DNA from: a virus
Lineage: Duplodnaviria; Heunggongvirae; Uroviricota; Caudoviricetes
Length of the DNA stretch: 16,384 nucleotides
Virus record (IMG/VR): IMGVR_UViG_2563367003_000001
Strand: one strand, 5' to 3'
Position 1 is the first letter of the stretch; the number at the start of each line of letters is the position of its first letter. The notes under the pieces are model-generated. The model was given only the letters and a program-made list of their open reading frames with translations. It ran no database searches and was not told the DNA's origin. This document shows positions 1 to 13,758 of this stretch, piece after piece. The translations under genes were made by a program, and so were the position numbers.

Positions 1-2160
<2,160 letters not shown>

Positions 2161-2236
2161 ACATGAGTCAATGGTGTAAGTATGTGAATGATATAAGAGG
2201 AAAAATAGAGCATAATCTCTACCTGAATGGCTATGT

Positions 2237-2272
2237 TGCAATACACACTGCAATACACACTGCAATACACAG
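2237..2272 (+). repeat. Three tandem 12-bp direct repeats TGCAATACACAC/G (candidate integrase arm-type sites or operator)
   Basis: TGCAATACACAC TGCAATACACAC TGCAATACACAG; related copies near the other end of the element (13310..13350). Confidence 0.8.
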
Positions 2273-2331
2273 AAATCAATGTACAAACCATTCAATTATC
2301 AACCCACAAATGAAGTGAATAAAGATTTGTT

Positions 2332-3093
2332 ATGAATATTATAGATACCCTTCAAAATGACCTAGAGCGCGCAGTAGCGCTTCAAAACATACTAATTGCA
2401 AGAGCTACAGGAGCCCAGGATGAAGCTAATAATGATTATTTGCTTCTAAGAACATATTTCTTACAAAATCCTCCTTTACATCAGCTATTACCAGAGTTTG
2501 TGAGAACTAATCGCTCACTAAAAGAATTTTGGGGATTTATAAAAAAGACTGAAAAGTATGCCCCCCGGAGAGATTTGATTTATAAGGCATTTCAGCCGAT
2601 GCTGGATTATCTAGAAGGGAAAAATAAAGCTCCAGCGGATGAAGACATATCTGATGTATTAAGAAAGTTTAACGAGGATGGAGTCCACGCCGTTTGGATA
2701 AAAGCACTTGAACGGCGCCATACAGATCCGGATGGTGCGATAACCTCCGCAAGAACACTTCTTGAAACAGTTTGCAAACACATTCTTGATGATATGGGCA
2801 TTCAGTATAATAATAAAAATATTGAAATGTCAGAGCTTTATAAAACTCTTTCAAAAGAACTTAACCTATCTGCCGACCAACATACTGAAAATATCTTCAA
2901 ACAAATTCTCGGCGGTTGTTCTGCAGTTGTAAATGGGTTAGGTACTCTTCGTAATAAACTCGGTGATGCACATGGAACGAACAGCTCATCAATTAAGCCA
3001 TCCCCAAGGCATGCCGAACTTGCAGTAAATTTATCAGGCTCAATGGCTCTTTTTTTAATTAACACTTGGTTAAACCTTAAAGATGGGAAATAA
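2332..3093 (+). CDS. HEPN-domain protein with Rx6H motif (Abi_C / abortive-infection-like), 253 aa
   Basis: C-terminal motif GTLRNKLGDAHG fits the HEPN R-x(4-6)-H signature seen in AbiJ/AbiU2/Abi_C proteins. AT-rich gene in the cargo position of the element. Family assignment from motif memory only. Confidence 0.6.
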   Translation: MNIIDTLQNDLERAVALQNILIARATGAQDEANNDYLLLRTYFLQNPPLHQLLPEFVRTNRSLKEFWGFIKKTEKYAPRRDLIYKAFQPMLDYLEGKNKAPADEDISDVLRKFNEDGVHAVWIKALERRHTDPDGAITSARTLLETVCKHILDDMGIQYNNKNIEMSELYKTLSKELNLSADQHTENIFKQILGGCSAVVNGLGTLRNKLGDAHGTNSSSIKPSPRHAELAVNLSGSMALFLINTWLNLKDGK

Positions 3094-3179
3094 CGTATAA
3101 TGAAGTAACACGAGCAATTAGTTAATCATTATACTCAGTCGATTAATTTATTTTGACGACTCGTAAGCAATTTTTCGAT

Positions 3180-3199
3180 GAGGGCGGAACTCCGCCCTC
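3180..3199. repeat. Perfect palindrome GAGGGCGGA-ac-TCCGCCCTC in a 360-bp non-coding spacer
   Basis: 9-bp arms, 2-nt spacer; no flanking U-tract on either strand, so not a canonical intrinsic terminator. Confidence 0.4.
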
Positions 3200-3495
3200 G
3201 GTGCTAACCTATGAGAAACGATATCTCTTCCACCGATACCATAATATTAGGTATCGCGAAGAAGCCCCAAAATCAGTGTGTTGCTTTTACTACCCAAACT
3301 ACCTGTAGTTTCATAGTTGAGTTGCAAATTTGCAATTCGACTACCAGCCACAAGGCGTAAATTTGCGTCGTCAGGAATATCAACGAGTTAGCATATGAAT
3401 AGGCCAAACGGCCACAAACCTCACTTTTGAGGCTTGCTCATTTATTAGCTGGCTATGGTAAGGCCCATTTTGGGGCCGTCGAGAAAATCAAAGAG

Positions 3496-3771
3496 TTATC
3501 GCCGCAGTCTGTCAGGCTTCTTCCACTGGTACGATGCAACGTTCTGGCGTTGTCCCTGCCTCCGCCTAGCTGCCAGTATAGCCAGCACTTTGGTGCGGAT
3601 GACTAAGCAATCCTGTCCGTTCAGTTCTATACCGTCACGCCACATAACCTCAGCAACCACACGAGCGTAATTTTCAGCGGTGACACTGCCCGGCTGCGTG
3701 GCCTGTTCGTCATGCTGGTGGCTGACTCCACCAGCATAGCAGATTACTTTCAGTAGTTCGGATTCAGTCAT
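3496..3771 (-). CDS. Hypothetical protein (91 aa), last gene of the packaging operon downstream of terS
   Basis: ORF 12 bp after the Nu1-like stop, same strand. No recognised similarity; an overlapping plus-strand ORF 3455..3670 is less protein-like. Confidence 0.4.
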   Translation of the reverse strand: MTESELLKVICYAGGVSHQHDEQATQPGSVTAENYARVVAEVMWRDGIELNGQDCLVIRTKVLAILAARRRQGQRQNVASYQWKKPDRLRR

Positions 3772-3782
3772 AGCGTACTACG

Positions 3783-4310
3783 TTACTTATCCTTATTCAG
3801 CTGCAACTTATCCGGTACGTTTCCTGTACTTTCCATCAGATAATCAGCCAGTATCTGTGGGAGGTTGTCAGCAACGCCGGCACTGGCATTACAGGCTTTA
3901 GCCACTTCCTTTTTAAGTCCATCCAGCATAGCCGGAGTCATCTGTGGGAAGCGCCTTTGCATGGTAAGCGGCAGGCTGTCCATGATAGATGAAATCTGAC
4001 TCGCCAGTTTGGAAAGAACATACATACAAAACTCTGTATCAATAACGTCGCCGCGTTCGCGCTCGTTTTTAAGCTCCTGCGCCTCTGCCTGTGCTGTCAG
4101 TAATCTGATCCTGACGCGTAAAAGTTCATCGTCATCAATATCGCCCGTTTCGTTTGTAATCTGGCTGATTGCATTGTTAACCCGATTATCTATTACACTG
4201 GCAACATCATAGAACGCCTCACGGCCCTTACGCTCGACGGGAATCACTCCCCACTTATCGAACGCAGTGGCGCTTACACGGCAACTTTTTGCCATGTTTT
4301 TTTTGTTCAT
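3783..4310 (-). CDS. Small terminase subunit, lambda Nu1-like (satellite-encoded TerS)
   Basis: Middle and C-terminal regions align with lambda Nu1 from memory (AQAEAQELKNERERGDVIDTEFCMYVLSKLASQISSIMDSLPLTMQRRFPQ versus AQADAQELKNARDSAEVVETAFCTFVLSRIAGEIASILDGLPLSVQRRFPE). Sits ~150 bp downstream of the cos-like site, as in lambda. Start chosen at MNKKNMAK; ORF track extends to 4334. Confidence 0.8.
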   Translation of the reverse strand: MNKKNMAKSCRVSATAFDKWGVIPVERKGREAFYDVASVIDNRVNNAISQITNETGDIDDDELLRVRIRLLTAQAEAQELKNERERGDVIDTEFCMYVLSKLASQISSIMDSLPLTMQRRFPQMTPAMLDGLKKEVAKACNASAGVADNLPQILADYLMESTGNVPDKLQLNKDK

Positions 4311-4399
4311 CAGGTGTAATTTCATTGATACCACAACTTAATTACTGTTTCAGGTTGGTGTATTGATTGTATTTTTCTCTTATTATTCATACAGATATA

Positions 4400-4500
4400 G
4401 CGAACAACAAAACCACCACCAGTCCCCTTAAAATGCTCATAAATAGAGAAAACCCGCGCGCCTGACGCCCCGTAGCCTGTCAGATCGCCGGAAAGGACCC
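4400..4500 (-). other. Lambda-like cos site (cosQ-side flank, cosN-equivalent at 4459..4470, start of cosB)
   Basis: Minus strand reads GGGTCCTTTCCGGCGATCTGACAGGCTACG GGGCGTCAGGCG CGCGGGTTTTCTCTATTTATGAGCATTTT. Recalled lambda sequence is ...GGGTCCTTTCCGGTGATCCGACAGGTTACG GGGCGGCGACCT CGCGGGTTTTCGCTATTTATGAAAATTTT. Flanks are near-identical; the central 12-mer differs at ~5 positions. Confidence 0.7.
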
Positions 4501-4526
4501 GCCAGCCAGAGCGGGCCCTAATTTCA

Positions 4527-4910
4527 TCAACCAATCAGCTTATAGCGACCATCCCGTGCATTGCGGCGTACACGCTCAATCTTGAGGCATAGCGCCGCAT
4601 CTGGCTTTTTTGGGACAGGTACGCGGCAATATTCAGAAGCGCGAGGAATATTATTTATCCAGTCGATCACTTCACTTAAATACCAGGCCTTACGCCCTTC
4701 CGTAACCTGCACACGCTCCGGGAACTCTCCACTAGCCTCAAGGTTTAGCAGTGTACGCCGACTCAGGGTTGTAATTTCCATCACCTGATTCATATCAACA
4801 AGGCGCTCGCTTAAACACATTTTGTCAGCGATAGCTTTTAATTCCTCTACAGCTGGATTCGGGTACATCATTTCGGCAATTGGCTTAAGGTCATTGTAAT
4901 CATTCTGCAT
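4527..4910 (-). CDS. AlpA/MerR-like HTH DNA-binding protein (127 aa), between the decoration gene and cos
   Basis: MEITTLSRRTLLNLEASGEFPERVQVTEGRKAWYLSEVIDWINN fits the AlpA-family HTH pattern. RBS GGGGGA 5 nt upstream of ATG at 4910. Function (regulator versus packaging factor) unknown. Confidence 0.6.
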   Translation of the reverse strand: MQNDYNDLKPIAEMMYPNPAVEELKAIADKMCLSERLVDMNQVMEITTLSRRTLLNLEASGEFPERVQVTEGRKAWYLSEVIDWINNIPRASEYCRVPVPKKPDAALCLKIERVRRNARDGRYKLIG

Positions 4911-4921
4911 TGTATCCCCCT

Positions 4922-5263
4922 TTACACACGAGCCAGCGGCTGAACAGAAATACCTGAGCCAACAAACGCGGCAACCTTTGCCGACAGTTCTCTTACAGAC
5001 TCAGGCCAGTTCAGAGCATCAACATTTAAAACACCTGTCTTATAAACCTGTGCCTGTGTTTTTTTCGCTGTGTCGATTTGTACAGCGGAAACATAAACCG
5101 CTTTGCCTGCGCTCGTTCCATCCCATACCACTAGCGCACCAGTTGCATCTTCCTGCATCAGTGGCGTAAACGCAGGTATTACCCCTTTATTGGCTGAAAA
5201 TATCCCCAGCGTAGTAACCAGTGCTTCAGTGCCAGACATGAGTTCAGTGTAATGAGTAGCCAT
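4922..5263 (-). CDS. Head decoration protein, lambda gpD-like (satellite-encoded)
   Basis: 113 aa; AFTPLMQEDATGALVVWDGTSAGKAVYVSAV...QVYKTGVLNVDALNWPES...AFVGSGISV parallels lambda gpD ([31 protein letters not shown]...[18 protein letters not shown]...[10 protein letters not shown]). Strong RBS AAGGGGGAG. Confidence 0.8.
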   Translation of the reverse strand: MATHYTELMSGTEALVTTLGIFSANKGVIPAFTPLMQEDATGALVVWDGTSAGKAVYVSAVQIDTAKKTQAQVYKTGVLNVDALNWPESVRELSAKVAAFVGSGISVQPLARV

Positions 5264-5272
5264 TGCTCCCCC

Positions 5273-6313
5273 TTAGCCAATGCGAACGGTAACAAAACGA
5301 TTGATGCGGGCCGGTATTGGCTGTGGTGCTGAATGTGTCTGCACATATTCAATAGCCGGATCACCAGGCACAATATAGTTTTTCGGTGCAAGTTCGGCTT
5401 TAGTCAGCCCCATTCGGATTAGCTCCGGATCCTGAATACCGCCATAGGCGACAATCCCCTGAAGAGCCGTATTGCCAAGCACCATCAAATCAGGATCAAG
5501 GAAATGTTTTTCAGTTCCGTCCTCGTCGGTATAACGCCCGCTGTATACAACAATCGCAACATCGCCCATATACCCTTTAAAACTCACCGAATCACCAAGG
5601 TCTTTAAGGGCCGTTTCCAGTTCGGAATTAGAACCACGACGGGTATCCAGAGCCTCTTTTATCGCTCTGAATGAACGGTATTTCTTCCATACATTACCGC
5701 CCATAATGATGATATTAGTGACGCCCTCACTAAATTCTGCGTAGCTCTCAATATCATCATTTGGATCAAAAGTTTCTTTATCCTTACCTGACCACTCAGC
5801 ACCGCCAGACTGAGTGATGATATTTTGTGGTTTAATATTCCAGTCCAGCTCATAACGTTCAATACCATCGCCCTCAATGATATTTTTCCCCGTTGTGATT
5901 GCCTGAACGGCAAGCCATTCAATACGTGCACGAATAGCTTTAGCCTGATTTACAATCGCCTGTTTAACTTTAATATTACGCGCTCCAAAAGCATTGTATT
6001 GCTCAGGTGATACACCAGCAGGGCGCACAGCTAACTTATTTGGATCAATGCTGCTTTTCGGCTTCATATAGCCTGGACGAATTGTTTTTGATTCGTACCC
6101 TTCGTCACGTGAAACTTTACTACCCACCATAGGAGAACAAAACGCTGCAATTGGGATATTTGGATCGTCGATTGTATCAAGAATAATATCGCGCGATTCA
6201 AACATTACCGAGCGAGTAAAAAACAAACTGGTAAACAACGCATTTAGTTGTTTTTGTACATCTACAGCATTAACCACCTGTACAAGCTGGGTAGGCGAAT
6301 ATAAATCAACCAT
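5273..6313 (-). CDS. Major capsid protein, lambda gpE-family homolog (divergent, satellite-encoded)
   Basis: Shares blocks with lambda gpE: ITQSGGAEWSGKDKETFDPNDDIESYA, RRGSNSELETALKDLG, GDVAIVVYSG, GYMKPK. Start set at MVDLYSPTQ (RBS AAGAGG); ORF track extends upstream to 6487. Confidence 0.85.
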   Translation of the reverse strand: MVDLYSPTQLVQVVNAVDVQKQLNALFTSLFFTRSVMFESRDIILDTIDDPNIPIAAFCSPMVGSKVSRDEGYESKTIRPGYMKPKSSIDPNKLAVRPAGVSPEQYNAFGARNIKVKQAIVNQAKAIRARIEWLAVQAITTGKNIIEGDGIERYELDWNIKPQNIITQSGGAEWSGKDKETFDPNDDIESYAEFSEGVTNIIIMGGNVWKKYRSFRAIKEALDTRRGSNSELETALKDLGDSVSFKGYMGDVAIVVYSGRYTDEDGTEKHFLDPDLMVLGNTALQGIVAYGGIQDPELIRMGLTKAELAPKNYIVPGDPAIEYVQTHSAPQPIPARINRFVTVRIG

Positions 6314-6487
6314 ACGCATCCTCTTTGCATTCATTAAAAATAATTGTGGATATATGCTATCACCGATATTTGTCATGCGAATACATGCAACCGAGTGCAA
6401 TGTTGTATAAAGTTTTGGGATGACAACTTCAGCACGGATAATTAGTGTTAATATCTTCACTCCCTTTGGTCTGGATTTATGTAGCAT

Positions 6488-6521
6488 GCCGGAAAATTTA
6501 TTTTTTTTCCGGCCTTTTTTA
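6488..6521 (+). terminator. GC-stem hairpin with T-tract (plus-strand orientation) between ssb and the capsid gene
   Basis: GCCGGAAAA-tttatttt-TTTTCCGGC followed by CTTTTTTA on the plus strand; on the minus strand the hairpin is not followed by a U-run. Confidence 0.4.
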
Positions 6522-6531
6522 TTGGCAATAT

Positions 6532-6981
6532 TTAAAACGGAATATCATCTCCCCATTGCTCATTATCTCCCACTGGTGGATGGCTTCCTTGCTGATCTGC
6601 CTGTTGTTTTGCTCTGTTCAGTGCGTCAGTAGCCTGACCCTGTTGATCTTTTTTGCCGCCCGGTCGCACCGTTCGCGCACTGATTACGCTGTCTGCGATA
6701 ACCTGCCAGCCCTGCCGCGTTTCACCGTTCTGTCCAGTCCACTGGCTCACCTGCATATTACCCGCCACGCTCAGGAGTTCGCCTTTGTGATGCTTTGCCA
6801 GCGTGTCGGCTTGTCTGCCAAACGCCAGCACAGATAACCACATCGTCGCCGTTCCGTCATCTGCCTGGCTGCATGGCAAAGATACCGCCATCCGTGCCAG
6901 TGTCATGGGTGTTCCCTTGCTGGTATGTTTTACCTGTGGGTCGTCCACCAGCCGCCCGTAAGCTGCTATTTGCGCCGTCAT
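6532..6981 (-). CDS. ssb: Single-stranded DNA-binding protein (SSB) with C-terminal acidic tip ...WGDDIPF
   Basis: 149 aa; OB-fold-like N-terminus (AYGRLVDDPQ...), Gln/Gly-rich linker, and the DDIPF tail characteristic of bacterial/phage SSBs (E. coli SSB ends DDDIPF). Confidence 0.8.
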   Translation of the reverse strand: MTAQIAAYGRLVDDPQVKHTSKGTPMTLARMAVSLPCSQADDGTATMWLSVLAFGRQADTLAKHHKGELLSVAGNMQVSQWTGQNGETRQGWQVIADSVISARTVRPGGKKDQQGQATDALNRAKQQADQQGSHPPVGDNEQWGDDIPF

Positions 6982-6992
6982 GCTGCCTGCTC

Positions 6993-7235
6993 TCAGGACT
7001 TAATATTGATGGTTGTCACTTCCTCCGCTTCGGCAATCTCCCGTTCGGTCAGCGTGGCAAAGTTTGCAGCCGCCGTTGTCATGAATGCGCTTATCAGTTC
7101 GGGATGTGCTTTCGCGTATCCTTCCCCGGCGTTGCGGTCTATTGCCTTAATCGCCACCCTTAGCCAGTGTTCAGCCATATCAAGGGCGCGGTAATGTGGC
7201 TTTATATGTTTGTTCAGTTTTCCTGATGTGTGCAT
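6993..7235 (-). CDS. Hypothetical protein (80 aa) immediately downstream of the iteron origin
   Basis: ORF with GAGGGGG RBS ~10 nt upstream; no recognised domain. Confidence 0.45.
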   Translation of the reverse strand: MHTSGKLNKHIKPHYRALDMAEHWLRVAIKAIDRNAGEGYAKAHPELISAFMTTAAANFATLTEREIAEAEEVTTINIKS

Positions 7236-7280
7236 TTTTATTTTTACCCCCTCGTTTAAAAAGTTTTTTGTGCACCACCA

Positions 7281-7510
7281 CCTTGTCTACCTTGTCTACC
7301 TGATTAGTTATCAGGCCAGTAATGGCGCGGGTTTCAGGGAGGTAGACAGCCCCAAATAGCTGTCTACCTCATCTCTACCCGTCTCCTTACCTGTCTACAA
7401 AAATGGGTAGATAAGGTAGATAACAGGTAGACAGTGAAAAATAGTTATCTACCTGCATTAATACATTGAAATAAAAGTATTTTATTTCAGTCAGGTAGAC
7501 AAGGTAGATA
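7281..7510. repeat. Replication origin: iteron array (>=11 copies of GGTAGAYA/TRTCTACC in both orientations) plus AT-rich segment
   Basis: CTTGTCTACCTTGTCTACC (7282..7300), GGTAGACAG (7341), TGTCTACC (7361), CTGTCTAC (7391), GGTAGATAAGGTAGATAACAGGTAGACAG (7407..7434), TATCTACC (7447), GGTAGACAAGGTAGATAAC (7493..7511); AT-rich 7457..7490. Lies directly 3' of the helicase gene. Confidence 0.8.
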
Positions 7511-7524
7511 ACCATTGCCATTTT

Positions 7525-9276
7525 TTATAAAAACGCATCGCAATCATCAGTAGTCGTTGCGTTGGTCTGCGTGACTCCCTTAACTTTTCGCGTAATATAT
7601 TCATATCCGTAAACTTTCGCCGCTGACCTCATAGCCTTTCCGAACTCATTCACGCTCAAACATTTCCCCTTTCCTGTATATGCCATGAAGGCCATATAGA
7701 CACGGTAAAGGCTGTTTCTGGTCGTGTACTTCACGGTGTCACCACCACCGCCCATCATTAGCCCACGAGCTTCCTCCAGAAACTCCAGCGCCGCGCAAAG
7801 CTCAACAACCGGATCCGTTTGCTGCTTTATTGCCAGAGCTTCATCACCGTCACGCTGTTCCAGTAATAAAGCCCGTGCCTTTTCAGGGTCAGCAAAATTA
7901 GCCAGCAAGCGGCGGATAATTACGGGGATTTCTGCCGCTATCTTTTCCGGTAATTCCTTGTCTTTTTCGTCCTCCCTTACAATGTTGTCGAACCGGAAAA
8001 TCACCCGACGGCGTGACACACCTCCGGCCCGTTCGGTAAAGATCATCGGGTCGTTATTGGTTGCCAGTACCACCGCCCTTATTATCGTCGTGAATCGCTT
8101 CTCATATTTCGGGTTAATTTCAACGGGATCGCCTCCCGTGATTTTCTTGATGCCCGTGCCTTCCCCCGTATATTTCGGCTGATCGGCAAGGACGATAAGA
8201 CGACTCCCGACAACCTGCGCACGCCCTCCTGCATCATCGAGTGATGTCATCTCTGCGCTTACGGTGTTCTGTTTGCCAGCAAGCAGGGTGGCAATATGGG
8301 TAAATGTACTCTTACCGCTTCCCCCGTCTCCGGTGGCCTCAATGAACATCTGCCAGTCGTACCGGTTCGCCATAATCATGTACAGCGCGGCACATATACG
8401 CATCATCTTGCGCGGGTCTTTTCCGGCTGCGTGCTCAAGCCATTTATGAAAGTTTGGCGCGTTATCGCGGATGTTCTCCCCTGGTGCTGGTGGCGTGTAC
8501 TCAATGCCGTTGTGCGTGGTGATCCAGTTCTCCGGCGTGTGCGGGGAAAATTCCCCCGTTTTCAGGTCAAGCGCACCATTGGCGAACGGCAGCAAATCGC
8601 CGGACGGCTCGCCCATTGGTTCGGCAATAACTTTTAACGCTTCAACGGCGTTATTGATCACGCGTTTGCTGAAAGTGGCCCTGTGCTCTGAATAGATCGC
8701 CACCATTTCGCGGCTCAGCTCCATTGTGCTGATCGGACACCATACCCCGCCGCGCCATACGTGAACGATTTCACTTTCCGGATGCACACAAACGCCATCA
8801 AAGCGCTCGGCAAGCAGCTGCGCGCGCTCACTGTCTGCCATCTGTGAAAGTTGCGCCTTTTGCTTCGTCGGAAGATTAAGCACCAGGCTTTCCCCACGCT
8901 CGCATTCCTCTTTGAGTCGCGGCAACTGGTCGGATAAATCCACTGGGCTGGTGTCAGTAATCCCCGCGTATTCGTGTACGGTCTTCACTCCAGCCACAGC
9001 CAGTAACGTAACAATCTGCGTCATGCTGTGCTCTGTGATATGTCCTGCGCGGTAAACACGCACACACTGACGATCTTCATCAATGATCCGGTAATCGGTG
9101 ATGTTTTTCAGTTGCTCATCAGCCAACACGACAGGCGGCACATCGTCGGCGGCAATATGTTTACCCGCCCATTCCTGCCACTCTTTCGCATGGCTCCACG
9201 CATCACTACCTGCAAAGATGATTATCTCTGTCAGTCTGTCGCGTGGCTGTTTTTTTAAGTTCGGTGCCAGTTTCAT
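7525..9276 (-). CDS. Replication initiator: SF3 helicase of the D5 / P4-alpha family (primase-helicase-like), 583 aa
   Basis: Walker A GDGGSGKST and surrounding D5_N/P4-alpha C-terminal-like sequence; followed by the iteron origin. The N-terminal ~250 aa may be a primase-like domain (not verified). Confidence 0.75.
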   Translation of the reverse strand: MKLAPNLKKQPRDRLTEIIIFAGSDAWSHAKEWQEWAGKHIAADDVPPVVLADEQLKNITDYRIIDEDRQCVRVYRAGHITEHSMTQIVTLLAVAGVKTVHEYAGITDTSPVDLSDQLPRLKEECERGESLVLNLPTKQKAQLSQMADSERAQLLAERFDGVCVHPESEIVHVWRGGVWCPISTMELSREMVAIYSEHRATFSKRVINNAVEALKVIAEPMGEPSGDLLPFANGALDLKTGEFSPHTPENWITTHNGIEYTPPAPGENIRDNAPNFHKWLEHAAGKDPRKMMRICAALYMIMANRYDWQMFIEATGDGGSGKSTFTHIATLLAGKQNTVSAEMTSLDDAGGRAQVVGSRLIVLADQPKYTGEGTGIKKITGGDPVEINPKYEKRFTTIIRAVVLATNNDPMIFTERAGGVSRRRVIFRFDNIVREDEKDKELPEKIAAEIPVIIRRLLANFADPEKARALLLEQRDGDEALAIKQQTDPVVELCAALEFLEEARGLMMGGGGDTVKYTTRNSLYRVYMAFMAYTGKGKCLSVNEFGKAMRSAAKVYGYEYITRKVKGVTQTNATTTDDCDAFL

Positions 9277-9572
9277 TTTTTGCCCCTGAATGCGTTAATC
9301 ATGCTTTTCATTTTCTGGATGTTTCCCCGCGCTTTTTCCCTGCTGATGGGCTTACTGCGGGGTGCGGCATATACCAGGGAAAAATCACGCCGGAACTGAT
9401 AAACAGGCATCACGCAGTCATAGCTATACCCCTCACGACGGTAAGTGATGCGCCGTTCTGCCACGCCTTTAATCGTTACCGTGCCGCCGTATTTATCGCG
9501 GTAAATATCGCCGTTCATAAATTCAGGCCGAGCGGGGCCGCTGGCAATAAAGCCAGAATTTTTCATTTCCAT
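9273..9572 (-). CDS. Hypothetical protein (99 aa), translationally coupled to the helicase gene (ATGA overlap)
   Basis: ORF in operon context; no recognised motif. Confidence 0.45.
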   Translation of the reverse strand: MEMKNSGFIASGPARPEFMNGDIYRDKYGGTVTIKGVAERRITYRREGYSYDCVMPVYQFRRDFSLVYAAPRSKPISREKARGNIQKMKSMINAFRGKK

Positions 9573-9589
9573 ATTATTTATTCCTCGAC

Positions 9590-9811
9590 TTAACTCGACT
9601 TATTTGATAGCAGGGCACTATTTATTGCGTCATTGAGTTTTTCTGCTGCTTCATCAATAAGTGACAACAGGCCATAAGCAATATTTGCATCTTCATTGTC
9701 ATTTATGCAATCAAGCCACATATTTAATATTGCTTTTGCTGAATTATTTAAAGTTAATGAACTTTCTGCACATGCTAACAATTTAAAAAAGACTTCCCGT
9801 TCTGTATTCAT
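9590..9811 (-). CDS. Hypothetical protein (73 aa), AT-rich
   Basis: ORF in operon context; composition differs from neighbours. Confidence 0.4.
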   Translation of the reverse strand: MNTEREVFFKLLACAESSLTLNNSAKAILNMWLDCINDNEDANIAYGLLSLIDEAAEKLNDAINSALLSNKSS

Positions 9812-10003
9812 TTAATCCCCCACCAGCTTACTTTCTTCCTCAATCAAAAAACTAGCGACACTTCCCGAAAGACGCGCCAGTAGGCTCGCCAGTGCGGATA
9901 TATCAGCATCTGTAATTTTGTTCGGGTATACCTCAAGAAGGCGGCAAATAATTTCTGTCTGGTGCGCACGTTCAGCGGCTTCGTGTAATGTGATTTCCTG
10001 CAT
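9812..10003 (-). CDS. Hypothetical protein (63 aa)
   Basis: ORF abutting the next gene with no spacer (stop/start coupling). Confidence 0.4.
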   Translation of the reverse strand: MQEITLHEAAERAHQTEIICRLLEVYPNKITDADISALASLLARLSGSVASFLIEEESKLVGD

Positions 10004-10188
10004 TAATGCACCTCTTTTAATTCATACACTGCTGAAATAATGACTTGTGATAAGCCATATTCTGATGATTCGCTTCTCACCGCAGCAATAGCCGTCTGAA
10101 CATTAACAGCCTTCACATTCTGAGCGATACCAATTGTGTGGCCTATTGGGTTAACAGCTCGGGCAAATACACGGAAGGTTTTAAGCAT
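10003..10188 (-). CDS. Hypothetical protein (61 aa)
   Basis: Start ATG overlaps the stop of the upstream 65-aa ORF (ATGCTTAA). Confidence 0.4.
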   Translation of the reverse strand: MLKTFRVFARAVNPIGHTIGIAQNVKAVNVQTAIAAVRSESSEYGLSQVIISAVYELKEVH

Positions 10189-10378
10189 GACTCACTCCCT
10201 GGCGGATTTTTGCAGCGAATACAGCAACACAACCGGACGGGCAACGGCTACGCGCTTCGCGTTCCGTCCAGGCGGTTACGTGGATGATTTGAGATTCTCC
10301 GGCACTCAGTGCCAGAAAACGCCACACAAAGGCCGTTTGTGTGTGTACAAGGTGTGGTATATGATTTACAGCAACCAT
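10181..10378 (-). CDS. Hypothetical protein (65 aa), first gene of the leftward operon
   Basis: Strong RBS AGGAGCCGTT-ATG. It is the 3' part of the 243-aa ORF 10181..10912 in the track; only the portion downstream of this RBS is considered real. Confidence 0.5.
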   Translation of the reverse strand: MVAVNHIPHLVHTQTAFVWRFLALSAGESQIIHVTAWTEREARSRCPSGCVAVFAAKIRQGVSHA

Positions 10379-10390
10379 AACGGCTCCTAG

Positions 10391-10568
10391 TTTACGTTGT
10401 TGGTTAGACGCCCCGTATGTGTTCCCAGCACTGCGGGGCGTTGCTCTTTGTATTTCAACAATTCTTTCGGTGTGTTTCATGTTATGAGCGCATGAAACAC
10501 ACGTCAAGGCTTTTTGTATTTCTTTTTTTGTGTATACTGAAACACACCGATGATTAGGAGTTTCAGAA
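10391..10568. promoter_or_regulatory. Divergent promoter/operator region between the leftward operon and the rightward RHH gene
   Basis: Inverted repeat GACGCCCCG...CGGGGCGT (10408..10440); palindrome TGTGTTTCATG...CATGAAACACA (10472..10500); second direct copy TGAAACACACC (10539..10549); -10-like TATACT (10531..10536); RBS AGGAG before ATG at 10569. Confidence 0.55.
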
Positions 10569-10874
10569 ATGGCAACGGCTAACAAAAACGCAAAATCACA
10601 ACTGACAACTGTCAGAGTCCCACTAGATGTTATGCAAGGGATGGAATCCGTTAAGCTGGACGGTGAAAGCAATGCCGGATTTATCGTAACCGCCATGCGC
10701 GGTGAAATCGCCCGCCGCCAGGCAGAAGGAAGCGGAGAAAATCCCCTCGTGTCTTCACTGGATGCCTTAGCTAAGGTCGAACAAATCGGCATCAAGGCAG
10801 CGGAGGAAATCGGGCAACTCGTAGCCGTCGCTCGTGAAGAACTCCAGCGGCGTAAAGCCAAAGAATCTGAATAA
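10569..10874 (+). CDS. Putative ribbon-helix-helix-type transcriptional regulator (101 aa)
   Basis: N-terminal beta-strand/helix pattern (TTVRVPLDVMQGMESVKLD...NAGFIVTAMRGEIARR) plus coiled C-terminus. AGGAG RBS. Divergent from the replication operon. Fold assignment is inference. Confidence 0.5.
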   Translation: MATANKNAKSQLTTVRVPLDVMQGMESVKLDGESNAGFIVTAMRGEIARRQAEGSGENPLVSSLDALAKVEQIGIKAAEEIGQLVAVAREELQRRKAKESE

Positions 10875-11224
10875 TTAGTATCAGCGCCGTGATGTGAGTA
10901 ACTACGGCGCATTGCTATGTAAATACTGGCAATAAACAGAAAAGGTAGTTCTACTCCGAATAATTTTATCTGACACTACTCCTGAACTAACATGCGCTTA
11001 TCTTACAGGATATAAATATAAATCCATAAAATCACGATTAAATAAAGTCGCTCCAAACATAAACCACACCCAACGCTTAACAAGATAGCAACAAACAGGT
11101 AAATAACTTGCAGAAATATTTATCGCAAGGATTATCATTATTAATGACAAATCACTTTACCAAGTCATTCCCCTCTCTTATCATAAAGAGAAAGTAATAA
11201 ATAAGTTAAGGGAGTTAGAATGCT

Positions 11225-11761
11225 ATGAATCTAAAAAAAATAGCCACAAACACAAAAAACAAGATAACAGAAACATTTAATAAACTTATATTAGAGGCAT
11301 CTAAAACCCCCACACAAGATGAAATTAAAATACTTGAGAGAAGGAGTAAGAAGTTTAATTACTCCTTTTTCTCATACGCAGTCACAGGAGCTATAATAGT
11401 TTTTTGCTCTCAACCATTAATTAAATACGCAAACCCAATACTTATTTTATTGAGTGGTCTGTTACTGTCTATCATCATTATCATTCTCAGAATGATTTAT
11501 ATTTCACAAGCGAATGCATCATGGACAACCAAAAAACGCTCACATGTACTAGTTCATTTTCTTTCTGCATGTTTCATAGCATCAACATTGACGTTGCTAT
11601 ATCAGGCTTACGATAATAACATCACACACAAATTGTACTGTAAAAATATACAACAACTTATTGAAAAAAGGATAGAAACAGAAAAAAACATCAGCATATT
11701 CAGTGGGATGCAATGCACCCCGGTATATGATTACTCTTTATTTGGATTTAATCTCTTATAA
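11225..11761 (+). CDS. Small membrane protein (178 aa, ~3 predicted TM helices), very AT-rich cargo gene
   Basis: Hydrophobic segments FFSYAVTGAIIVFCSQPLI, ILILLSGLLLSIIIIILRMIYI, VLVHFLSACFIASTLTLLY. Strongly AT-rich versus the flanks. No recognised family. Confidence 0.55.
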   Translation: MNLKKIATNTKNKITETFNKLILEASKTPTQDEIKILERRSKKFNYSFFSYAVTGAIIVFCSQPLIKYANPILILLSGLLLSIIIIILRMIYISQANASWTTKKRSHVLVHFLSACFIASTLTLLYQAYDNNITHKLYCKNIQQLIEKRIETEKNISIFSGMQCTPVYDYSLFGFNLL

Positions 11762-11770
11762 AGAATGTTA

Positions 11771-11804
11771 TTACTGATTTGAGTACAAATTCTCAAATCA
11801 GTAA
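11771..11804. terminator. Bidirectional intrinsic terminator hairpin between convergent genes
   Basis: 13-bp perfect stem TTACTGATTTGAG / CTCAAATCAGTAA with 8-nt loop, A/T-rich flanks on both sides; lies between the plus-strand membrane-protein gene and the minus-strand alpA gene. Confidence 0.65.
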
Positions 11805-11830
11805 TTCATAATATTTTATTCTGAGATAAT

Positions 11831-12058
11831 TTAAACTACCCACTCACCTCGAATCCATGCCTGCACTTCTGAAAGACGATATGCAACAGCAGTGGAACCA
11901 ATCTTGATCCGCTTAGGAAATTTTCCTTCCTTCTCCAGCTTCCAGCGTGTGCTGTTCGCAAGAGTGGTTAGCTCCCGACATTCTTTCTCACGGATCATTC
12001 GGTCAATGTTAGGAATGTACTCCAGACCCTTTTTATCAACAATTGCCATTTTTTTCAT
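11831..12058 (-). CDS. alpA: AlpA-family HTH protein (excisionase/Vis-like regulator), 75 aa
   Basis: IREKECRELTTLANSTRWKLEKEGKFPKRIKIGSTAVAYRLSEVQAWI fits the AlpA pattern; immediately downstream of the integrase gene. Confidence 0.8.
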   Translation of the reverse strand: MKKMAIVDKKGLEYIPNIDRMIREKECRELTTLANSTRWKLEKEGKFPKRIKIGSTAVAYRLSEVQAWIRGEWVV

Positions 12059-12059
12059 G

Positions 12060-13295
12060 TTAACCAGCCTTTTGTTTGAGGATTGTCACTTTTGAATCAG
12101 CACCTGCGATGCTATTGAGATATGTAGTCCAGAGTTCCAGAGCATCCAGTTTTTTAGCCATAAACTTACTCCGGTTGTAAACACCTGCCACGCCAGGTAG
12201 CGCATGGCCTAACAGTTGTTCTACTACATAAAATTCAACACCGAGATCACTTAGATGAGTAGATAGCGTTCTTCTAAGGTCGTGTAGTGACCATTGTTTT
12301 TCATGGCCCAAACGTTTACCGATTTTCCCCCCAATCTTGCTTACGCTTTCTCTAATTCGCAGACTTCCCAGCACATAACCAGTATGTTTTGTCTCTTCGT
12401 GAACATCCGTTACCCACTGTCGTAGAATTTCAGGTACTGGTCTGACGATTTCAACACCAGTTTTTGAGTGATCTTTTGGTACAGTCCAAACCCAACTTTC
12501 GAGATCCCATTCGCTCCATTCTGATAATCGGGCTTCACTCATTCGACATCCAAATACTGTACAAAGCACAAACATTTTTCGCGTGTATTCAGACATTAGT
12601 TTTAAATCAGGCTCGACAAAAATTGCCTTCCAGAGCTGGCCGAGTTCGGCTTCATCCAGAACCCGATCCCGCTTACCTGCAATCTGCCCCACATCACTCA
12701 TGCGCAAATCCTTTAAAGCATCACACGTCGCGTACTGGCGTACCCGACAAAAACGAAGAGCTAATTTAGTGTCAGAAAAAACATACGCCGCCATAACTGG
12801 TGCATTACGTTTAATTCGGTCAAAACAGTCCAGCCATTCATATAGGTGAGTGTCATTTACGGGCAAATGACCGATATAGGGAAAGATATGCTTTCGAAAT
12901 CTGCCAAGCGTTACAGCATGAGTTTTACGACGCACCTTACAGTAATTTTCATACCAGTAATTTAGTGCATCCTCCACTGTAACCGGCTTTAAGCGTTCTT
13001 CAGCCTGAATCTTAATCTGGATACGCGGATCACGTTTGTCAGCCAACCAACCACGGCACTCGTCGCGCTTTTCCCTTGCCTGTTTGAGTGACATATCAGG
13101 ATATTTACCCAACGTTAGCCAGACCGGAGCAGCCCGGCCACCTGCTAACCTGTAGAAGAAAACAAAGCTCACAGCCCCTTTAGTACTCACACGAATAGAA
13201 AGCCCCTTTCCATCAGCAATGGTGATCTGCTTTTCTCTGGGTTTCCCCAGATATCCTTTAAGCGCTTTGTCGCTCAGTTTGTTCTCGCCAGCCAT
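12060..13295 (-). CDS. int: Tyrosine site-specific integrase, P4-type
   Basis: N-terminal arm-binding-like region (LSDKALKGYLGKPREKQITIADGKGLSIRVSTKGAVSFVFFYR), catalytic-box residues (HDLRRT, LLGHA...GVYNRS). Start set at MAGENKLSDK; ORF track extends to a GTG at 13346. Confidence 0.9.
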   Translation of the reverse strand: MAGENKLSDKALKGYLGKPREKQITIADGKGLSIRVSTKGAVSFVFFYRLAGGRAAPVWLTLGKYPDMSLKQAREKRDECRGWLADKRDPRIQIKIQAEERLKPVTVEDALNYWYENYCKVRRKTHAVTLGRFRKHIFPYIGHLPVNDTHLYEWLDCFDRIKRNAPVMAAYVFSDTKLALRFCRVRQYATCDALKDLRMSDVGQIAGKRDRVLDEAELGQLWKAIFVEPDLKLMSEYTRKMFVLCTVFGCRMSEARLSEWSEWDLESWVWTVPKDHSKTGVEIVRPVPEILRQWVTDVHEETKHTGYVLGSLRIRESVSKIGGKIGKRLGHEKQWSLHDLRRTLSTHLSDLGVEFYVVEQLLGHALPGVAGVYNRSKFMAKKLDALELWTTYLNSIAGADSKVTILKQKAG

Positions 13296-13309
13296 TTTTA
13301 GCCCCAAAA

Positions 13310-13350
13310 AGCAATACAAGCTGCAATACAGAGATGATTGCAACACACAG
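13310..13350 (+). repeat. Direct repeats related to TGCAATACA (AGCAATACA, TGCAATACA, TGCAACACA) upstream of int
   Basis: Same motif and orientation as the 3x12-bp array at 2237..2272 at the opposite end of the element. Confidence 0.7.
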
Positions 13351-13457
13351 ATAACGAGGAAAATTCAGTGAAAGCACCAGATAAACTTATTCTTTATTAT
13401 CAAAAGATTAAGTGTAAAAACCAGCAACTACACGAAAGCCTCAGAAAGCCATGCTAA

Positions 13458-13703
13458 GTGCTTCGGCTTGACATATCCCGGCGTAAATTCAGAGGTGGAG
13501 CCGCCACGGGAGCGGATAACCTCACCGGAAACAATCGGCGAAACGTACAGCGCCATGTTTACCAGCCCCGGAATTTGTGAGAGATAGACTTTCTCCGTGG
13601 TGAAGGGATAGCTCTCACGGAAAAAGAGACGCAGAAACAGCGGATCAAACTTAAATTTCTGCTCATTTGCCGCCAGCAGCTGGGCGGTTGTGTACATCGA
13701 CAT
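13458..13703 (-). pseudogene. E: Lambda-like major capsid protein E, N-terminal fragment (residues 1 to ~91), interrupted by the inserted element
   Basis: MSMYTTAQLLAANEQKFKFDPLFLRLFFRESYPFTTEKVYLSQIPGLVNMALYVSPIVSGEVIRSRGGSTSEFTPGYVKPKH matches the lambda gpE N-terminus; the frame then reads 9 unrelated codons (LAWLSEAFV) into the element and stops at 13428. Confidence 0.9.
13459..13468. repeat. Right junction core (attR-like): TGCTTCGGCT
   Basis: Identical to 2151..2160; lambda E sequence continues on the high-coordinate side. Confidence 0.7.
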
Positions 13704-13758
13704 AAAAAAATCCCGTAAAAAAAGCCGCACAGGCGGCCTTTAGTGATGAAGGGTAAGG

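Follow-up and report, generated by a model that had tools for sequence, protein, structure and literature searches.

The window analysed here, a 16,384-nt stretch of DNA, contains a satellite of known type: a helper-embedded PICI inserted in a lambda-like gene E, with its 10-bp att core at 13459-13468 and 2151-2160. In its late zone, on the reverse strand, lies a cassette of three genes. The first, capE (5273-6313, 346 aa), encodes a gpE-like major-capsid homologue (Pfam Phage_cap_E, E=2.4e-41), the second, decD (4922-5263, 113 aa), a gpD-like head-decoration homologue (Pfam HDPD, E=4.6e-15), and the third, alpA2 (4527-4910, ATG to TGA, 127 aa), a protein of the AlpA family. The start of capE is the conserved MVDLYSP, as in RefSeq for loci L001 and L007 and in the open reading frames (ORFs) of other genera; a longer 404-aa capE ORF reaching 6487 is not conserved in those genera. 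The cassette is preceded by a candidate operator and promoter and followed by a cos site, all on the same strand.

The alpA2 gene and its protein

The boundaries of alpA2 are exact in the ORF list and the translation. Its ATG is separated from the TAA of decD by 11 nt, and this gap includes a strong Shine-Dalgarno sequence read from the letters, AGGGGGA (4915-4921, reverse strand), at a spacing of 4 nt (5 nt for its GGGGGA core, 4915-4920). Compared with the commonest E. coli allele, alpA2 carries 5 non-synonymous and 21 synonymous changes (dN/dS = 0.06); it is a real gene under purifying selection, and its product has an AlpA fold. Synonymous divergence falls in the last 37 codons (dS 0.07, versus 0.47 in the HTH part), which could reflect a constraint at the DNA level or merely recombination.

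Residues 36-85 of AlpA2 match Pfam Phage_AlpA (PF05930) over profile positions 2-51 of 51, with E=7.6e-9 and 35.8 bits against a gathering cut-off of 21 bits. This was the only family returned by the Pfam scan, with neither PyocinActivator nor Phage_Nu1 among the results; NCBIfam has no model for the protein, and PHROG 2790, the family that contains it, is labelled 'excisionase and transcriptional regulator'. A phmmer search of the PDB matched it to a solved AlpA-type excisionase, 8c3t, at E=2e-9. At 127 aa AlpA2 exceeds the small single domain of 60-80 aa typical of AlpA/Xis proteins, with extensions of 35 aa on the N-terminal and about 40 aa on the C-terminal side that are both conserved family-wide. 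Literature searches on 8C3T and WP_001178671 gave no match, and AlpA2 is undescribed in the papers searchable here.

The AF2 model, built from a 108-sequence alignment (a shallow one of 25 sequences gave a pLDDT of 51), has a mean pLDDT of 81.7 and exceeds 95 in the core. It predicts an N-terminal helical hairpin (8-15, 19-33), a winged HTH (37-86), a linker and a C-terminal basic helix (105-119). The model superposes on 8c3t, the GIsul2 excisionase, with an rmsd of 0.8 A over 52 columns (42% identity, TM(target) 0.86). Its top fold matches (8c3t, RdfS, BldC, Pukovnik Xis and TorI) are DNA-binding excisionases and regulators, which bind direct repeats as head-to-tail multimers; among viral models it matched AlpA and, weakly, PrtN activators (E about 0.014-0.019 for PrtN).

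The first-pass annotation had described a 127-aa AlpA-type HTH protein between the gpD-like gene and cos, and both the ORF and its position hold exactly, with the profile match clearing the Pfam cut-off and with cosQ 26 nt beyond the gene. The N-terminal extension, given there as about 40 aa, is slightly shorter as measured, and the conserved C-terminal tail had gone unmentioned. The other AlpA that it had placed next to int is likewise borne out by Pfam (75 aa, 11831-12058); the two proteins are 36% identical over 67 residues. It had gone too far in calling two AlpA proteins in one element notable, as roughly 7.5% of the complete E. coli genomes share this arrangement (alpA2 is present in 408 of 5,426).

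Inheritance of the cassette and of the region around cos

Full-length AlpA2 homologues occur in many Enterobacteriaceae, in at least 8 lineages besides E. coli. A scan of one genome per species gave only 4 loci, and the context of distant homologues was obtained through exact-protein look-ups. A tblastn search of 50,697 phage records with AlpA2 found no match, which argues that, its PHROG membership notwithstanding, this is not a phage gene.

We compared 13 cassette loci, from E. coli, Kosakonia, Kluyvera, Superficieibacter, Cedecea, Buttiauxella, Scandinavium and further metagenome or genome lineages. In all 13 the order capE-decD-alpA2 is fixed, with alpA2 last and decD always adjoining it. 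These loci span at least 4 replication modules and at least 3 integrase/att types, and the cassette stays constant across differences in integrase, in replication module and in the gene that follows cos. Among the genes mapped in these loci, AlpA2 is the sole recognisable DNA-binding protein that is always found with the cassette, and some of the loci have no homologue of the int-proximal AlpA.

The integration sites seen with AlpA2 (the capE site, cspD-clpS, fis and a mug-adjacent site) represent at least three unrelated integrase/att systems. A near-invariant HTH alongside all of them is hard to reconcile with AlpA2 being a second excisionase (RDF), or an architectural protein of the arm sites, that serves the satellite or its helper in integration or excision. 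That role, suggested by the name of the family, by its best solved match being an excisionase and by the PHROG label, is in our opinion very unlikely: RDFs normally co-vary with their integrase, alpA2 lies about 7 kb away from int while the first AlpA abuts it, and the linkage of AlpA2 is always to capE-decD.

Beyond the cassette, and outside the proposed regulatory unit, lies cos (4459-4500, reverse strand), with cosQ GGGTCCT at 4494-4500 and the cosN 12-mer GGGCGTCAGGCG at 4459-4470. It was assigned by comparison with the STEC711 helper prophage (L016) and the EcCICFT073 cos; on both flanks it matches the lambda-type cos of STEC711, a closely related helper, almost exactly. The 26 nt between the alpA2 stop codon (4527-4529) and cosQ, on the same strand, show no conservation in the alignment. 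RNA folding predicts a GC-rich hairpin in this region (4495-4518, reverse strand), weak in the window (z = -1.45), whose 3' arm is cosQ itself; a terminator-like hairpin is found 3' of alpA2 in every lineage.

The gene after cos varies. In the window it is a Nu1-family small-terminase gene (3783-4325), separate from alpA2, and a Nu1-like TerS is also found there in L003, L005, L010, L011 and L017. L004 and L014 have a tail-I-like protein at this position, and L006 and L007 have TIR or restriction genes and no TerS; in L006 the gene is on the opposite strand, and in other loci the slot is sometimes empty. A concatenated alpA2+terS query against the 5,426 E. coli genomes showed how loosely the two are linked. 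Of the genomes with alpA2, about 263 have the Nu1-like TerS adjacent and about 145 lack it, and some 524 E. coli genomes carry the same TerS without AlpA2, having an unrelated 137-aa gene instead. The two genes thus assort independently, and we rejected a functional coupling between them. The same-position gene of EcCICFT073 was also rejected as an alpA2 homologue, its 137-aa product being unrelated.

These patterns qualify the earlier placement of alpA2 in a capsid/packaging operon: it does end the capsid/decoration unit, but the small-terminase gene lies beyond cos and is inherited independently. They also argue against the proposal that AlpA2 is a packaging accessory, the other role suggested at first pass, binding cos, cosQ, cosB, the hairpin or the terminase so as to favour the satellite, to modulate cleavage or termination at cos, or to hamper the helper terminase as Rpp does. 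AlpA2 is independent of the gene after cos and of cosB type, the same cosQ and cosN are found in elements whose alpA2 slot holds a non-homologous gene, and the stretch that separates the gene from cosQ is unconserved. The attraction of the idea lies in the 26-nt distance from cosQ, in the cos-adjacent HNH proteins of HK97-like phages, which are a precedent for packaging helpers, and in the winged-HTH fold that AlpA2 shares with Nu1 and Rpp; the small-terminase DNA-binding domains 7lwr/7lw0 and 6hn7_B stand low in its list of fold matches. This fold is common to the DNA-binding domains of lambda Nu1 and Rpp (PMC6739421). We find no sequence similarity to RppA or RppC, and AlpA2 has no counterpart of the roughly 75-aa C-terminal domain, made of three helices, through which Rpp dimerises; we consider a packaging role distinctly unlikely. 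As to homology with Rpp itself, BLASTP gave no alignment to RppA, phmmer did not recover RppC (6HLK/6HN7) at E<=1, and 6hn7_B (RppC) came only 38th in the fold search, at E=1.3; AlpA2 was rejected as an Rpp homologue.

A variant of the idea would make AlpA2, instead of a transcription factor or besides being one, an Xis-like architectural protein beside cosQ that shifts where the helper terminase terminates. The helper terminase might then, for example, skip cos sites and pack several satellite genomes of 11 kb into one full-size head, or packaging might be matched to capsids built from the satellite's own capE and decD. If true, the capsid cassette would be physically linked to the control of genome length; we think it highly improbable. 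The distance of 26 nt, cosQ as a hairpin arm and the low dS at the end of alpA2 were noted in this connection.

Phased repeats upstream of capE

By alignment and pattern search we found a candidate operator upstream of capE (6385-6410, reverse strand), which consists of three direct repeats in 10-bp phase: R1 TTATAC (6410-6405), R2 TTGCAC (6400-6395) and R3 TTGCAT (6390-6385), with N4 spacers. A predicted extended -10 element, TGaTAGCAT (6354-6362, reverse strand; TG at 6362-6361 and TAGCAT at 6359-6354), corresponds to the conserved block GGTGATAGCAT in the alignment. It lies 25 nt downstream of R3, with the same geometry in other loci, and relative to it R1, R2 and R3 are centred at about -60, -50 and -40. 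This -10 lacks a -35 hexamer at the standard distance, and the proposed capE promoter was not picked up by a generic promoter scan; it is from conservation only that the -10 is predicted, and the transcription start, expected near 6347, is a prediction too.

The pattern TTRYAY-N4 x3 matches once in the window and in none of 200 shuffled sequences. It occurs once per locus in 8 of the 12 fetched loci with an alpA2 cassette, and in each of these it lies some 70 nt ahead of capE; L010/L011 and L014/L015 have variant arrays at the same place that fall outside the exact pattern. It was not found in c1502-type loci, near cos or near either att core of the window, and the array is absent from three cassettes with the non-homologous 137-aa gene in place of alpA2. 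Cassettes without alpA2 have instead a near-consensus sigma-70 promoter (TTGCAC-16 nt-TATAAT), then a leader hairpin and a T-run. The repeat array therefore exists, is non-random and is specific to the alpA2-type cassette.

Most lineages have three to five repeats per cassette and a -10-like element of the extended, TGn type, and in other genera the array region is non-coding. Buttiauxella and Scandinavium have two clear repeats, and their distance from repeats to -10 is 33 nt, a misfit to the 25-nt geometry seen elsewhere that counts against a regulatory reading of the array.

Across lineages the repeat sequence shifts together with the DNA-contacting segments of AlpA2. TTGCAY repeats accompany the segments LSRRTLLNLE...EGRKAWY, TTGTAC repeats accompany R52G (Cedecea), TTATAC repeats accompany N56D, L57M, E71P, K74T and Y77L (Buttiauxella, Scandinavium), and TTAGAC/TTGTGC repeats accompany R52Q with other changes (L014). 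This covariation amounts effectively to 4-5 independent lineages, and both it and the co-occurrence of array and gene are confounded by linkage and phylogeny, because promoter and alpA2 are one inherited block. A use of the repeats as replication origin was rejected, as their conservation extends over elements with four distinct replication modules. The ori of EcCICFT073 maps downstream of pri, and its counterpart in the window would be the pri-proximal intergenic region rather than the region upstream of capE.

A protein other than AlpA2 might bind these repeats, with AlpA2 acting on helper or host genes instead. Because the repeats resemble -35 hexamers and the CII consensus, a helper or host factor could bind them in the E. 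coli lineage: the window's TTGC-N6-TTGC is the lambda CII consensus, a relaxed pattern recovered the helper's own pRE CII site, and host regulators of the OmpR/PhoB type use similar direct repeats, phased at 10-11 bp, as their sites. P2 Cox, P4 epsilon and PLE CapR repress or derepress helper promoters. Helper-directed regulators are common satellite products (PMC10111431). In the STEC711 helper DNA scanned (about 38 kb, all but the distal tail end), however, no comparable array was found other than the CII site already known. Compared with promoters that depend on CII, the distance to the conserved -10 is greater by about 14 nt, and lineages with TTATAC or TTAGAC have no TTGC; on these two grounds helper CII was largely rejected as the binder. 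Since the repeats vary between lineages that share similar hosts, an element-encoded partner fits better than a conserved host factor, and we regard other targets for AlpA2 as unlikely.

In most lineages GC-rich hairpins flank the cassette on both sides, which suggests that it is a separate transcription unit. Some are canonical intrinsic terminators, upstream in Buttiauxella and Scandinavium and downstream in Cedecea and EcCICFT073. The hairpin that follows alpA2 in every lineage could be the target of a processive antiterminator: AlpA2 would load on the polymerase at the cassette promoter, its extra N- and C-terminal segments perhaps touching the enzyme, and would let it read through the cosQ hairpin into the gene after cos. 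Phage Q proteins are reported to act in this way, as is a P. aeruginosa protein named AlpA. An AlpA2 of this kind would have no constant target downstream, since the gene after cos varies and is sometimes on the opposite strand, and no solved antiterminator complex is among the sequence or fold matches of AlpA2. We see hardly any likelihood of such a role.

A proposed regulator of the cassette and its relatives

We propose that AlpA2 is a dedicated transcription regulator of capE-decD-alpA2, probably an activator that works through the phased repeats, and on the sequence evidence we give this proposal about an even chance. It takes up the late-operon activator suggested at first pass, which is favoured indirectly by the linkage in 13 of 13 loci and by the repeats, set in phase ahead of a -10-like element; winged-helix proteins of the Xis/AlpA/BldC/PrtN class bind sites of this type. 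The winged HTH of AlpA2 would bind head-to-tail to the repeats (TTRYAY every 10 bp). From this position, about 40-60 bp upstream of the -10-like element, it would most likely recruit RNA polymerase and so switch the cassette on, with the N-terminal hairpin and the C-terminal basic helix perhaps serving oligomerisation or contact with the polymerase. As alpA2 is the last gene of the cassette that it would activate, a positive feedback loop would result. A regulator encoded at the end of its own operon also needs an external trigger, which we infer as well: the first AlpA2 molecules may come from transcripts that read through from satellite genes lying upstream or, while the element is embedded in its helper, from late transcription of the helper, which is co-oriented with the satellite. 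Deletion of the capsid homologue of EcCICFT073 left transfer unaffected (PMC6092414); this puts the biological role of the capsid cassette itself in doubt, and counts against a dedicated regulator for it.

Gram-negative PICIs and helper-embedded satellites are widespread, and lambda-like capsid and decoration genes of their own are found in many of them. A conserved regulator with a 26-bp candidate operator would offer a handle on when the capsid cassette is expressed, and hence on its function; should AlpA2 prove no more than a common autoregulator, the benefit would be modest. The late zone appears as a set of independently assorting units, namely the capsid cassette with its regulator, cos, and the variable gene after cos, and the cos-adjacent region as a cargo slot rather than a fixed packaging module.

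The element in the window corresponds to the helper-embedded PICI type '11capE' (Tommasini, Mageeney and Williams 2023; PMC10111431), with which it shares the insertion in gene E, the 10-bp att core and the order of zones. The preprint version of that study describes the type as lacking terS, whereas the window copy has a Nu1-family gene. The study puts all Phage_AlpA/HTH_17 proteins under 'Integration', and the passages of it consulted here do not single out a late-zone AlpA or the repeat array. The division of the late zone into independently assorting units corrects the filing of every satellite AlpA match under that heading.

Rpp resembles AlpA2 in being a PICI-encoded winged-HTH protein that adjoins cos, and the late zone of EcCICFT073 is laid out as in the window: capsid, decoration, gene X, cos, gene Y. 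Rpp, however, is gene Y, downstream of cos, whereas AlpA2 is gene X, upstream of it. Rpp binds the helper TerS, while AlpA2 assorts independently of both TerS and Rpp, and where RppC has a three-helix dimerisation domain (residues 65-139) AlpA2 has the single helix 105-119.

P2 Cox, 186 Apl and Streptomyces BldC are small Xis-like winged-HTH promoter regulators that act on repeat arrays, BldC being also a top fold match of AlpA2. Cox activates the late promoter of the satellite P4. Cox and Apl work at att as well, and their genes adjoin the lysis-lysogeny switch; BldC is encoded on the chromosome. All three lack extensions of the AlpA2 type and ties to a capsid cassette. The RDF-type Apl binds direct repeats one helical turn apart (PMC7498355), and BldC multimers assemble cooperatively on direct repeats (PMC5859096).

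The AlpA proteins of the PICI/P4 type (EcCICFT073 AlpA, CP4-57 AlpA and P4 Vis) share the PF05930 family and the winged HTH with AlpA2, and in EcCICFT073 the AlpA activates transcription from its own promoter (PMC6092414). They have about 70 aa, compared with 127 aa in AlpA2 with its conserved hairpin and basic helix, and their recognition helix reads LANSTRWKLE rather than LSRRTLLNLE. AlpA2 is encoded not beside int but at the far end of the element, in the capsid cassette and independently of integrase type.

PrtN offers a further parallel, as an AlpA-like winged-HTH protein that activates phage-derived structural genes through about four direct repeats. It differs in that AlpA2 has no Pfam PyocinActivator match, that the GT half of the P-box has no equivalent in the capE repeats, and that PrtN is under the repressor PrtR and encoded outside the operon that it activates, whereas alpA2 lies inside. 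PrtN activates phage-tail-like pyocin genes via the P-box, four 10-11-nt repeats ATTGnn(n)GTnn(n) found 60-100 bp upstream from the Shine-Dalgarno element (PMC4905994). The capE array, to which AlpA2 would bind, matches this geometry, with 3-5 repeats of 10 nt, often (A)TTGCAY, located 60-85 nt upstream of the capE Shine-Dalgarno sequence.

A second AlpA-type protein in a helper-embedded satellite

The window covers the head region of a lambda-like prophage on the minus strand (portal, S49 protease, gpD and a split gpE), whose major capsid gene E is interrupted by an element of ~11.3 kb inserted in the same orientation as the gene. The N-terminal piece of the helper gpE lies at 13428-13730 and the C-terminal piece at 1370-2146 (both minus strand), and the insertion is bounded by a 10-bp direct repeat, the att core TGCTTCGGCT, at 2151-2160 and 13459-13468; the element as a whole spans 2151-13468. 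Its genes run from an integrase, a 75-aa AlpA, a D5-type primase and an SSB, through a gpE-like capsid gene (capE), a gpD-like decoration gene (decD), the gene for a 127-aa AlpA-family protein (AlpA2) and cos, to a Nu1-family small terminase, a 91-aa protein and an Abi_C gene on the opposite strand. The element belongs to the published capE type of helper-embedded PICI (11capE configuration with a 10-bp identity block; PMC10111431; bioRxiv 10.1101/2022.07.18.500453), and E. coli STEC711 carries a near-identical copy.

About 150 nt downstream of the gpE C-terminal fragment we found an IS3-family element (9-1222, minus strand) with two overlapping transposase ORFs, and an Rfam isrC match (1068-1190, 150 bits) over its frameshift region. 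The related STEC711 prophage has an FI gene after gpE where the window has this element, so the window's helper may be defective. At the distal end of the satellite, the Abi_C-domain abortive-infection gene (2332-3093, plus strand) occupies a spot that holds a restriction endonuclease or a TIR-like protein in other copies (L007 and L006, respectively); the spot after cos is a hotspot for defence cargo.

The alpA2 ORF (4527-4910, minus strand) runs from ATG to TGA, and its Shine-Dalgarno sequence AGGGGGA (minus strand) falls within the 11-nt gap after the decoration-gene stop. The first-pass annotation had described a second AlpA-type HTH protein between the gpD-like gene and cos. This is confirmed by the ORF, by the profile search it had proposed (Pfam Phage_AlpA at residues 36-85, E=7.6e-9, 35.8 bits against a cut-off of 21), and by matches to the solved 'AlpA family' excisionase structure 8c3t (E=2e-9) and to PHROG 2790 (1e-49); its description lacked the conserved C-terminal tail of ~40 aa.

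AlphaFold2, run on a 108-sequence alignment (mean pLDDT 81.7), predicts N-terminal helices at 8-15 and 19-33, a wHTH at 37-86 (pLDDT >95), a linker and a C-terminal helix at 105-119. Foldseek matched the PDB over the wHTH only, to the GIsul2 excisionase 8c3t (rmsd 0.8 A), RdfS, BldC, Pukovnik Xis, MerR-type domains and TorI; a chain of the complex between TerS and Rpp, the redirecting phage packaging protein of PICIs, ranked 38th (E=1.3). Among viral models the matches were AlpA and PrtN activators.

Full-length relatives come from Enterobacteriaceae alone, and most have exactly 127 aa. An exhaustive search of 1.8 billion cluster representatives returned three full-length clusters at the 50% level, its other matches covering the AlpA domain only, and tblastn against 50,697 phage genomes gave no match, which marks AlpA2 as a satellite rather than a phage protein. 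The HTH and wing are nearly invariant (TTLSRRTL...GEFP.RVQVT.GRKAWYLSE) and a C-terminal motif, P..P..L.LK..R.RR, is conserved too, while the first ~20 residues vary. The gene is under strong purifying selection: it differs from the commonest E. coli allele by 5 non-synonymous and 21 synonymous changes (dN/dS 0.06). In the same comparison the last 37 codons (4527-4640) have a dS of 0.07, against 0.44-0.47 elsewhere in the gene; decD is 99.7% identical and the TerS gene has a dS of 0.72. The low value at the 3' end reflects either a recombination mosaic or DNA-level constraint beside cosQ.

The capsid cassette and its neighbours at cos

Directly downstream of alpA2, on the same strand, lie cosQ (GGGTCCT, 4494-4500) and the cosN 12-mer GGGCGTCAGGCG (4459-4470), followed by a cosB-like segment (4326-4458) and the Nu1-family small terminase gene (3783-4325, minus strand; Pfam E=1e-24). 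On both flanks the sequence is almost the same as at the cos of a close relative, the STEC711 helper prophage (the window stops short of its own helper's cos); the satellite 12-mer differs from that helper's GGGCGGCGACCT at 5 of 12 positions, whereas cosQ and the sequences flanking cosN are conserved. Among satellites of different genera this cohesive-end 12-mer varies in its right half. A 70-aa ORF (4322-4534, minus strand), absent from the RefSeq annotation, covers the entire cos and matches PHROG 11159 (6e-46); since the gene would be severed by cleavage at cos, that family is probably an artefact of conserved cos DNA.

The satellite TerS is 34% identical to the Nu1 of the STEC711 helper, with the C-terminal part conserved and the N-terminal wHTH diverged. 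In carrying this gene the element seems to follow the SaPI-like strategy of 'own TerS, borrowed TerL' as an alternative to Rpp; the preprint on helper-embedded PICIs describes 11capE as lacking terS (bioRxiv 10.1101/2022.07.18.500453).

The late zone of the model PICI EcCICFT073 (capsid, decoration, a 137-aa gene, cos, the 144-aa RppA encoded by c1503, and a 93-aa gene) matches the window's layout, which defines a slot on either side of cos, X preceding it and Y following it. Neither the 137-aa protein nor RppA is related to AlpA2, and RppA is also unrelated to the window's Nu1-like protein. From gene order we infer that the 137-aa protein is c1502; it is conserved in alpA2's slot in EcCICFT073-type cassettes (L002 7084-7497; L008 and L009, both 6383-6796) and has no Pfam, NCBIfam or sequence relation to anything tested.

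We examined 13 loci with AlpA2 or its 50%-identity relatives, and the order capE-decD-alpA2 is kept in all of them. They include E. coli helper-embedded copies (the window, L001, L007), an E. coli cspD-clpS PICI (L017), elements of Kosakonia, Kluyvera, Superficieibacter and Cedecea (L003-L006) and of Buttiauxella and Scandinavium (L010, L011), and further lineages including a fis-site PICI (L012-L015). All else varies across these loci, which have at least three kinds of integrase. Beside int the regulator belongs to Phage_AlpA or HTH_17, or none can be detected. For replication the elements carry a D5 primase, a 456-aa helicase-type protein, a DUF927 protein or a Toprim-D5 fusion, and slot Y either is empty or contains a Nu1-like TerS, a protein resembling lambda tail I or, on the other strand, a TIR-like or restriction gene. 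The tail-assembly-protein-I-like genes, which take the place of a terminase or Rpp gene, are in Kluyvera (L004 10660-11259), called from its N-terminal sequence, and in the fis-site PICI (L014 6720-7346), called from a weak Pfam Lambda_tail_I match. While cosQ and cosN are common to all compared elements, cosB follows slot Y and not slot X: a GGTGGTGG-type cosB is found where the Nu1-like TerS is present (the GGTGGTGG/TTGTTGTT-type segment accompanies it in other genera too), and a lambda-like R-site segment in Kluyvera. The Kluyvera cosB resembles the R-site region of lambda itself.

In complete E. coli genomes alpA2 is common rather than exotic (408 of 5,426, or 7.5%). A concatenated alpA2+terS query found the two adjacent in ~263 genomes, from which it follows that ~145 have alpA2 but not that TerS, and that ~524 have that TerS with the 137-aa gene in place of alpA2 (for example ATCC 25922 and O157:H7). 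This independent assortment argues against a role tied to terminase or cos specificity. A packaging accessory at cos, or a factor interfering with terminase, had been one of the two functions first suggested for the protein; as alpA2 assorts independently of TerS and cosB type, and cos has no AlpA2-specific feature, we now consider it very unlikely. The comparisons of loci also argue against AlpA2 being the integrase's directionality factor, and a second excisionase is highly improbable, as alpA2 is linked to no single integrase.

Phased repeats upstream of capE

When the capE-upstream regions of five genera are aligned, a conserved series of hexamers stands out, one every 10 bp exactly, with a conserved extended -10-like element 25 nt further on. 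In the window the candidate operator comprises TTATAC (6410-6405), TTGCAC (6400-6395) and TTGCAT (6390-6385), followed by the predicted -10-like element TGaTAGCAT (6362-6354), a capE Shine-Dalgarno sequence near 6326-6320 and the capE ATG at 6313, all on the minus strand. Relative to the -10-like element the repeats are centred near -60, -50 and -40, and at the usual spacing the predicted promoter lacks a -35 hexamer.

The window has a single match to the pattern TTRYAY-N4-TTRYAY-N4-TTRYAY, and 200 shuffles have none. The same pattern was found once per locus, always at the capE-upstream site, in 8 of the 12 alpA2-cassette loci fetched, and is absent from the three cassettes without alpA2 and from the ~38 kb of the STEC711 helper prophage scanned (all but the distal tail end). 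Kosakonia, Kluyvera and Superficieibacter have four repeats in the same phase, and Cedecea has TTGTAC twice plus TTGCAT, also in phase. L012 has CTATAC, TTGCAC, TTATAC and TTGCAT; L014 has five repeats (TTAGAC twice, TTGGGT, TTGTGC twice); Buttiauxella and Scandinavium have two clear TTATAC repeats at a different distance from the -10. The region is non-coding in other genera, and the 404-aa extended capE ORF in E. coli is fortuitous. A replication origin is unlikely, as the repeats are conserved across four different replication modules.

Changes in the hexamer go with changes in the recognition helix or wing of AlpA2: R52G in Cedecea, N56D, L57M, E71P, K74T and Y77L in Buttiauxella/Scandinavium, and R52Q among others in L014. 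This covariation is suggestive only, being confounded by phylogeny. It is possible that another factor such as CII binds the repeats, with AlpA2 regulating helper or host genes, and the true CII site of the helper, at pRE, was indeed among the hits of the pattern search. CII, however, fits neither the distance to the -10 nor the lineages without TTGC, and we regard this explanation as unlikely.

In several lineages the repeats have GC-rich hairpins upstream (canonical terminators in Buttiauxella and Scandinavium), and a hairpin separates the alpA2 stop from cosQ in every lineage (a canonical terminator in Cedecea and EcCICFT073). The window's own alpA2-cosQ hairpin uses cosQ itself as its 3' arm and is of unremarkable stability (z = -1.45). 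The downstream hairpin is the one point in favour of AlpA2 being an antiterminator, the least probable of the functions considered. Cassettes without alpA2 (L002 5350-5440; L008, L009) have a near-consensus sigma-70 promoter, TTGCAC-16 nt-TATAAT, and a leader hairpin with a T-run between promoter and first gene, which suggests that attenuation or antitermination, and not an activator, exerts control. In EcCICFT073 and O157:H7 a gene for a PerC-family regulator is found just upstream. The hairpins and differing promoter designs make the capsid cassette look like a separate unit whose control depends on the presence of alpA2.

A proposed regulator and its parallels

We propose that AlpA2 binds the phased repeats and thereby regulates its own cassette. 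As the predicted promoter has no -35 element and the repeats lie upstream of where its -35 region would be, the most likely effect would be activation of transcription; since alpA2 is last in the cassette, activation would mean positive feedback. We give this model as a whole about an even chance. The first AlpA2 might come from read-through, starting either in satellite genes further upstream or in the late transcription of the helper, which has the same orientation and is antiterminated, as discussed for helper-embedded PICIs (PMC10111431). Of the two functions first suggested, the late-operon activator is favoured, indirectly, by the fixed capE-decD link and the phased repeats, over the packaging factor, which independent assortment disfavours.

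Neither the element type nor its cos nor the AlpA family is new. As far as the PICI literature and accession records could be searched, they hold no description of a late-zone AlpA paralogue, a fixed capsid-cassette link or the repeat array, and the helper-embedded-PICI study places all AlpA hits under 'Integration' (PMC10111431). The role of AlpA2 is now directly testable.

Proteins of this fold characteristically form head-to-tail multimers on direct repeats spaced by one helical turn, often in promoter regulation; Apl (PMC7498355) and BldC (PMC5859096) are documented examples. The AlpA of EcCICFT073 is itself an activator (PMC6092414). The closest functional parallel is PrtN, an AlpA-like activator of pyocin genes derived from phage tails, whose P-box consists of four repeats of 10-11 nt, ATTGnn(n)GTnn(n), lying 60-100 bp upstream from the Shine-Dalgarno sequence (PMC4905994). 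The capE-upstream array, where AlpA2 is predicted to bind, resembles the P-box in number, period, position and ATTG-type start.
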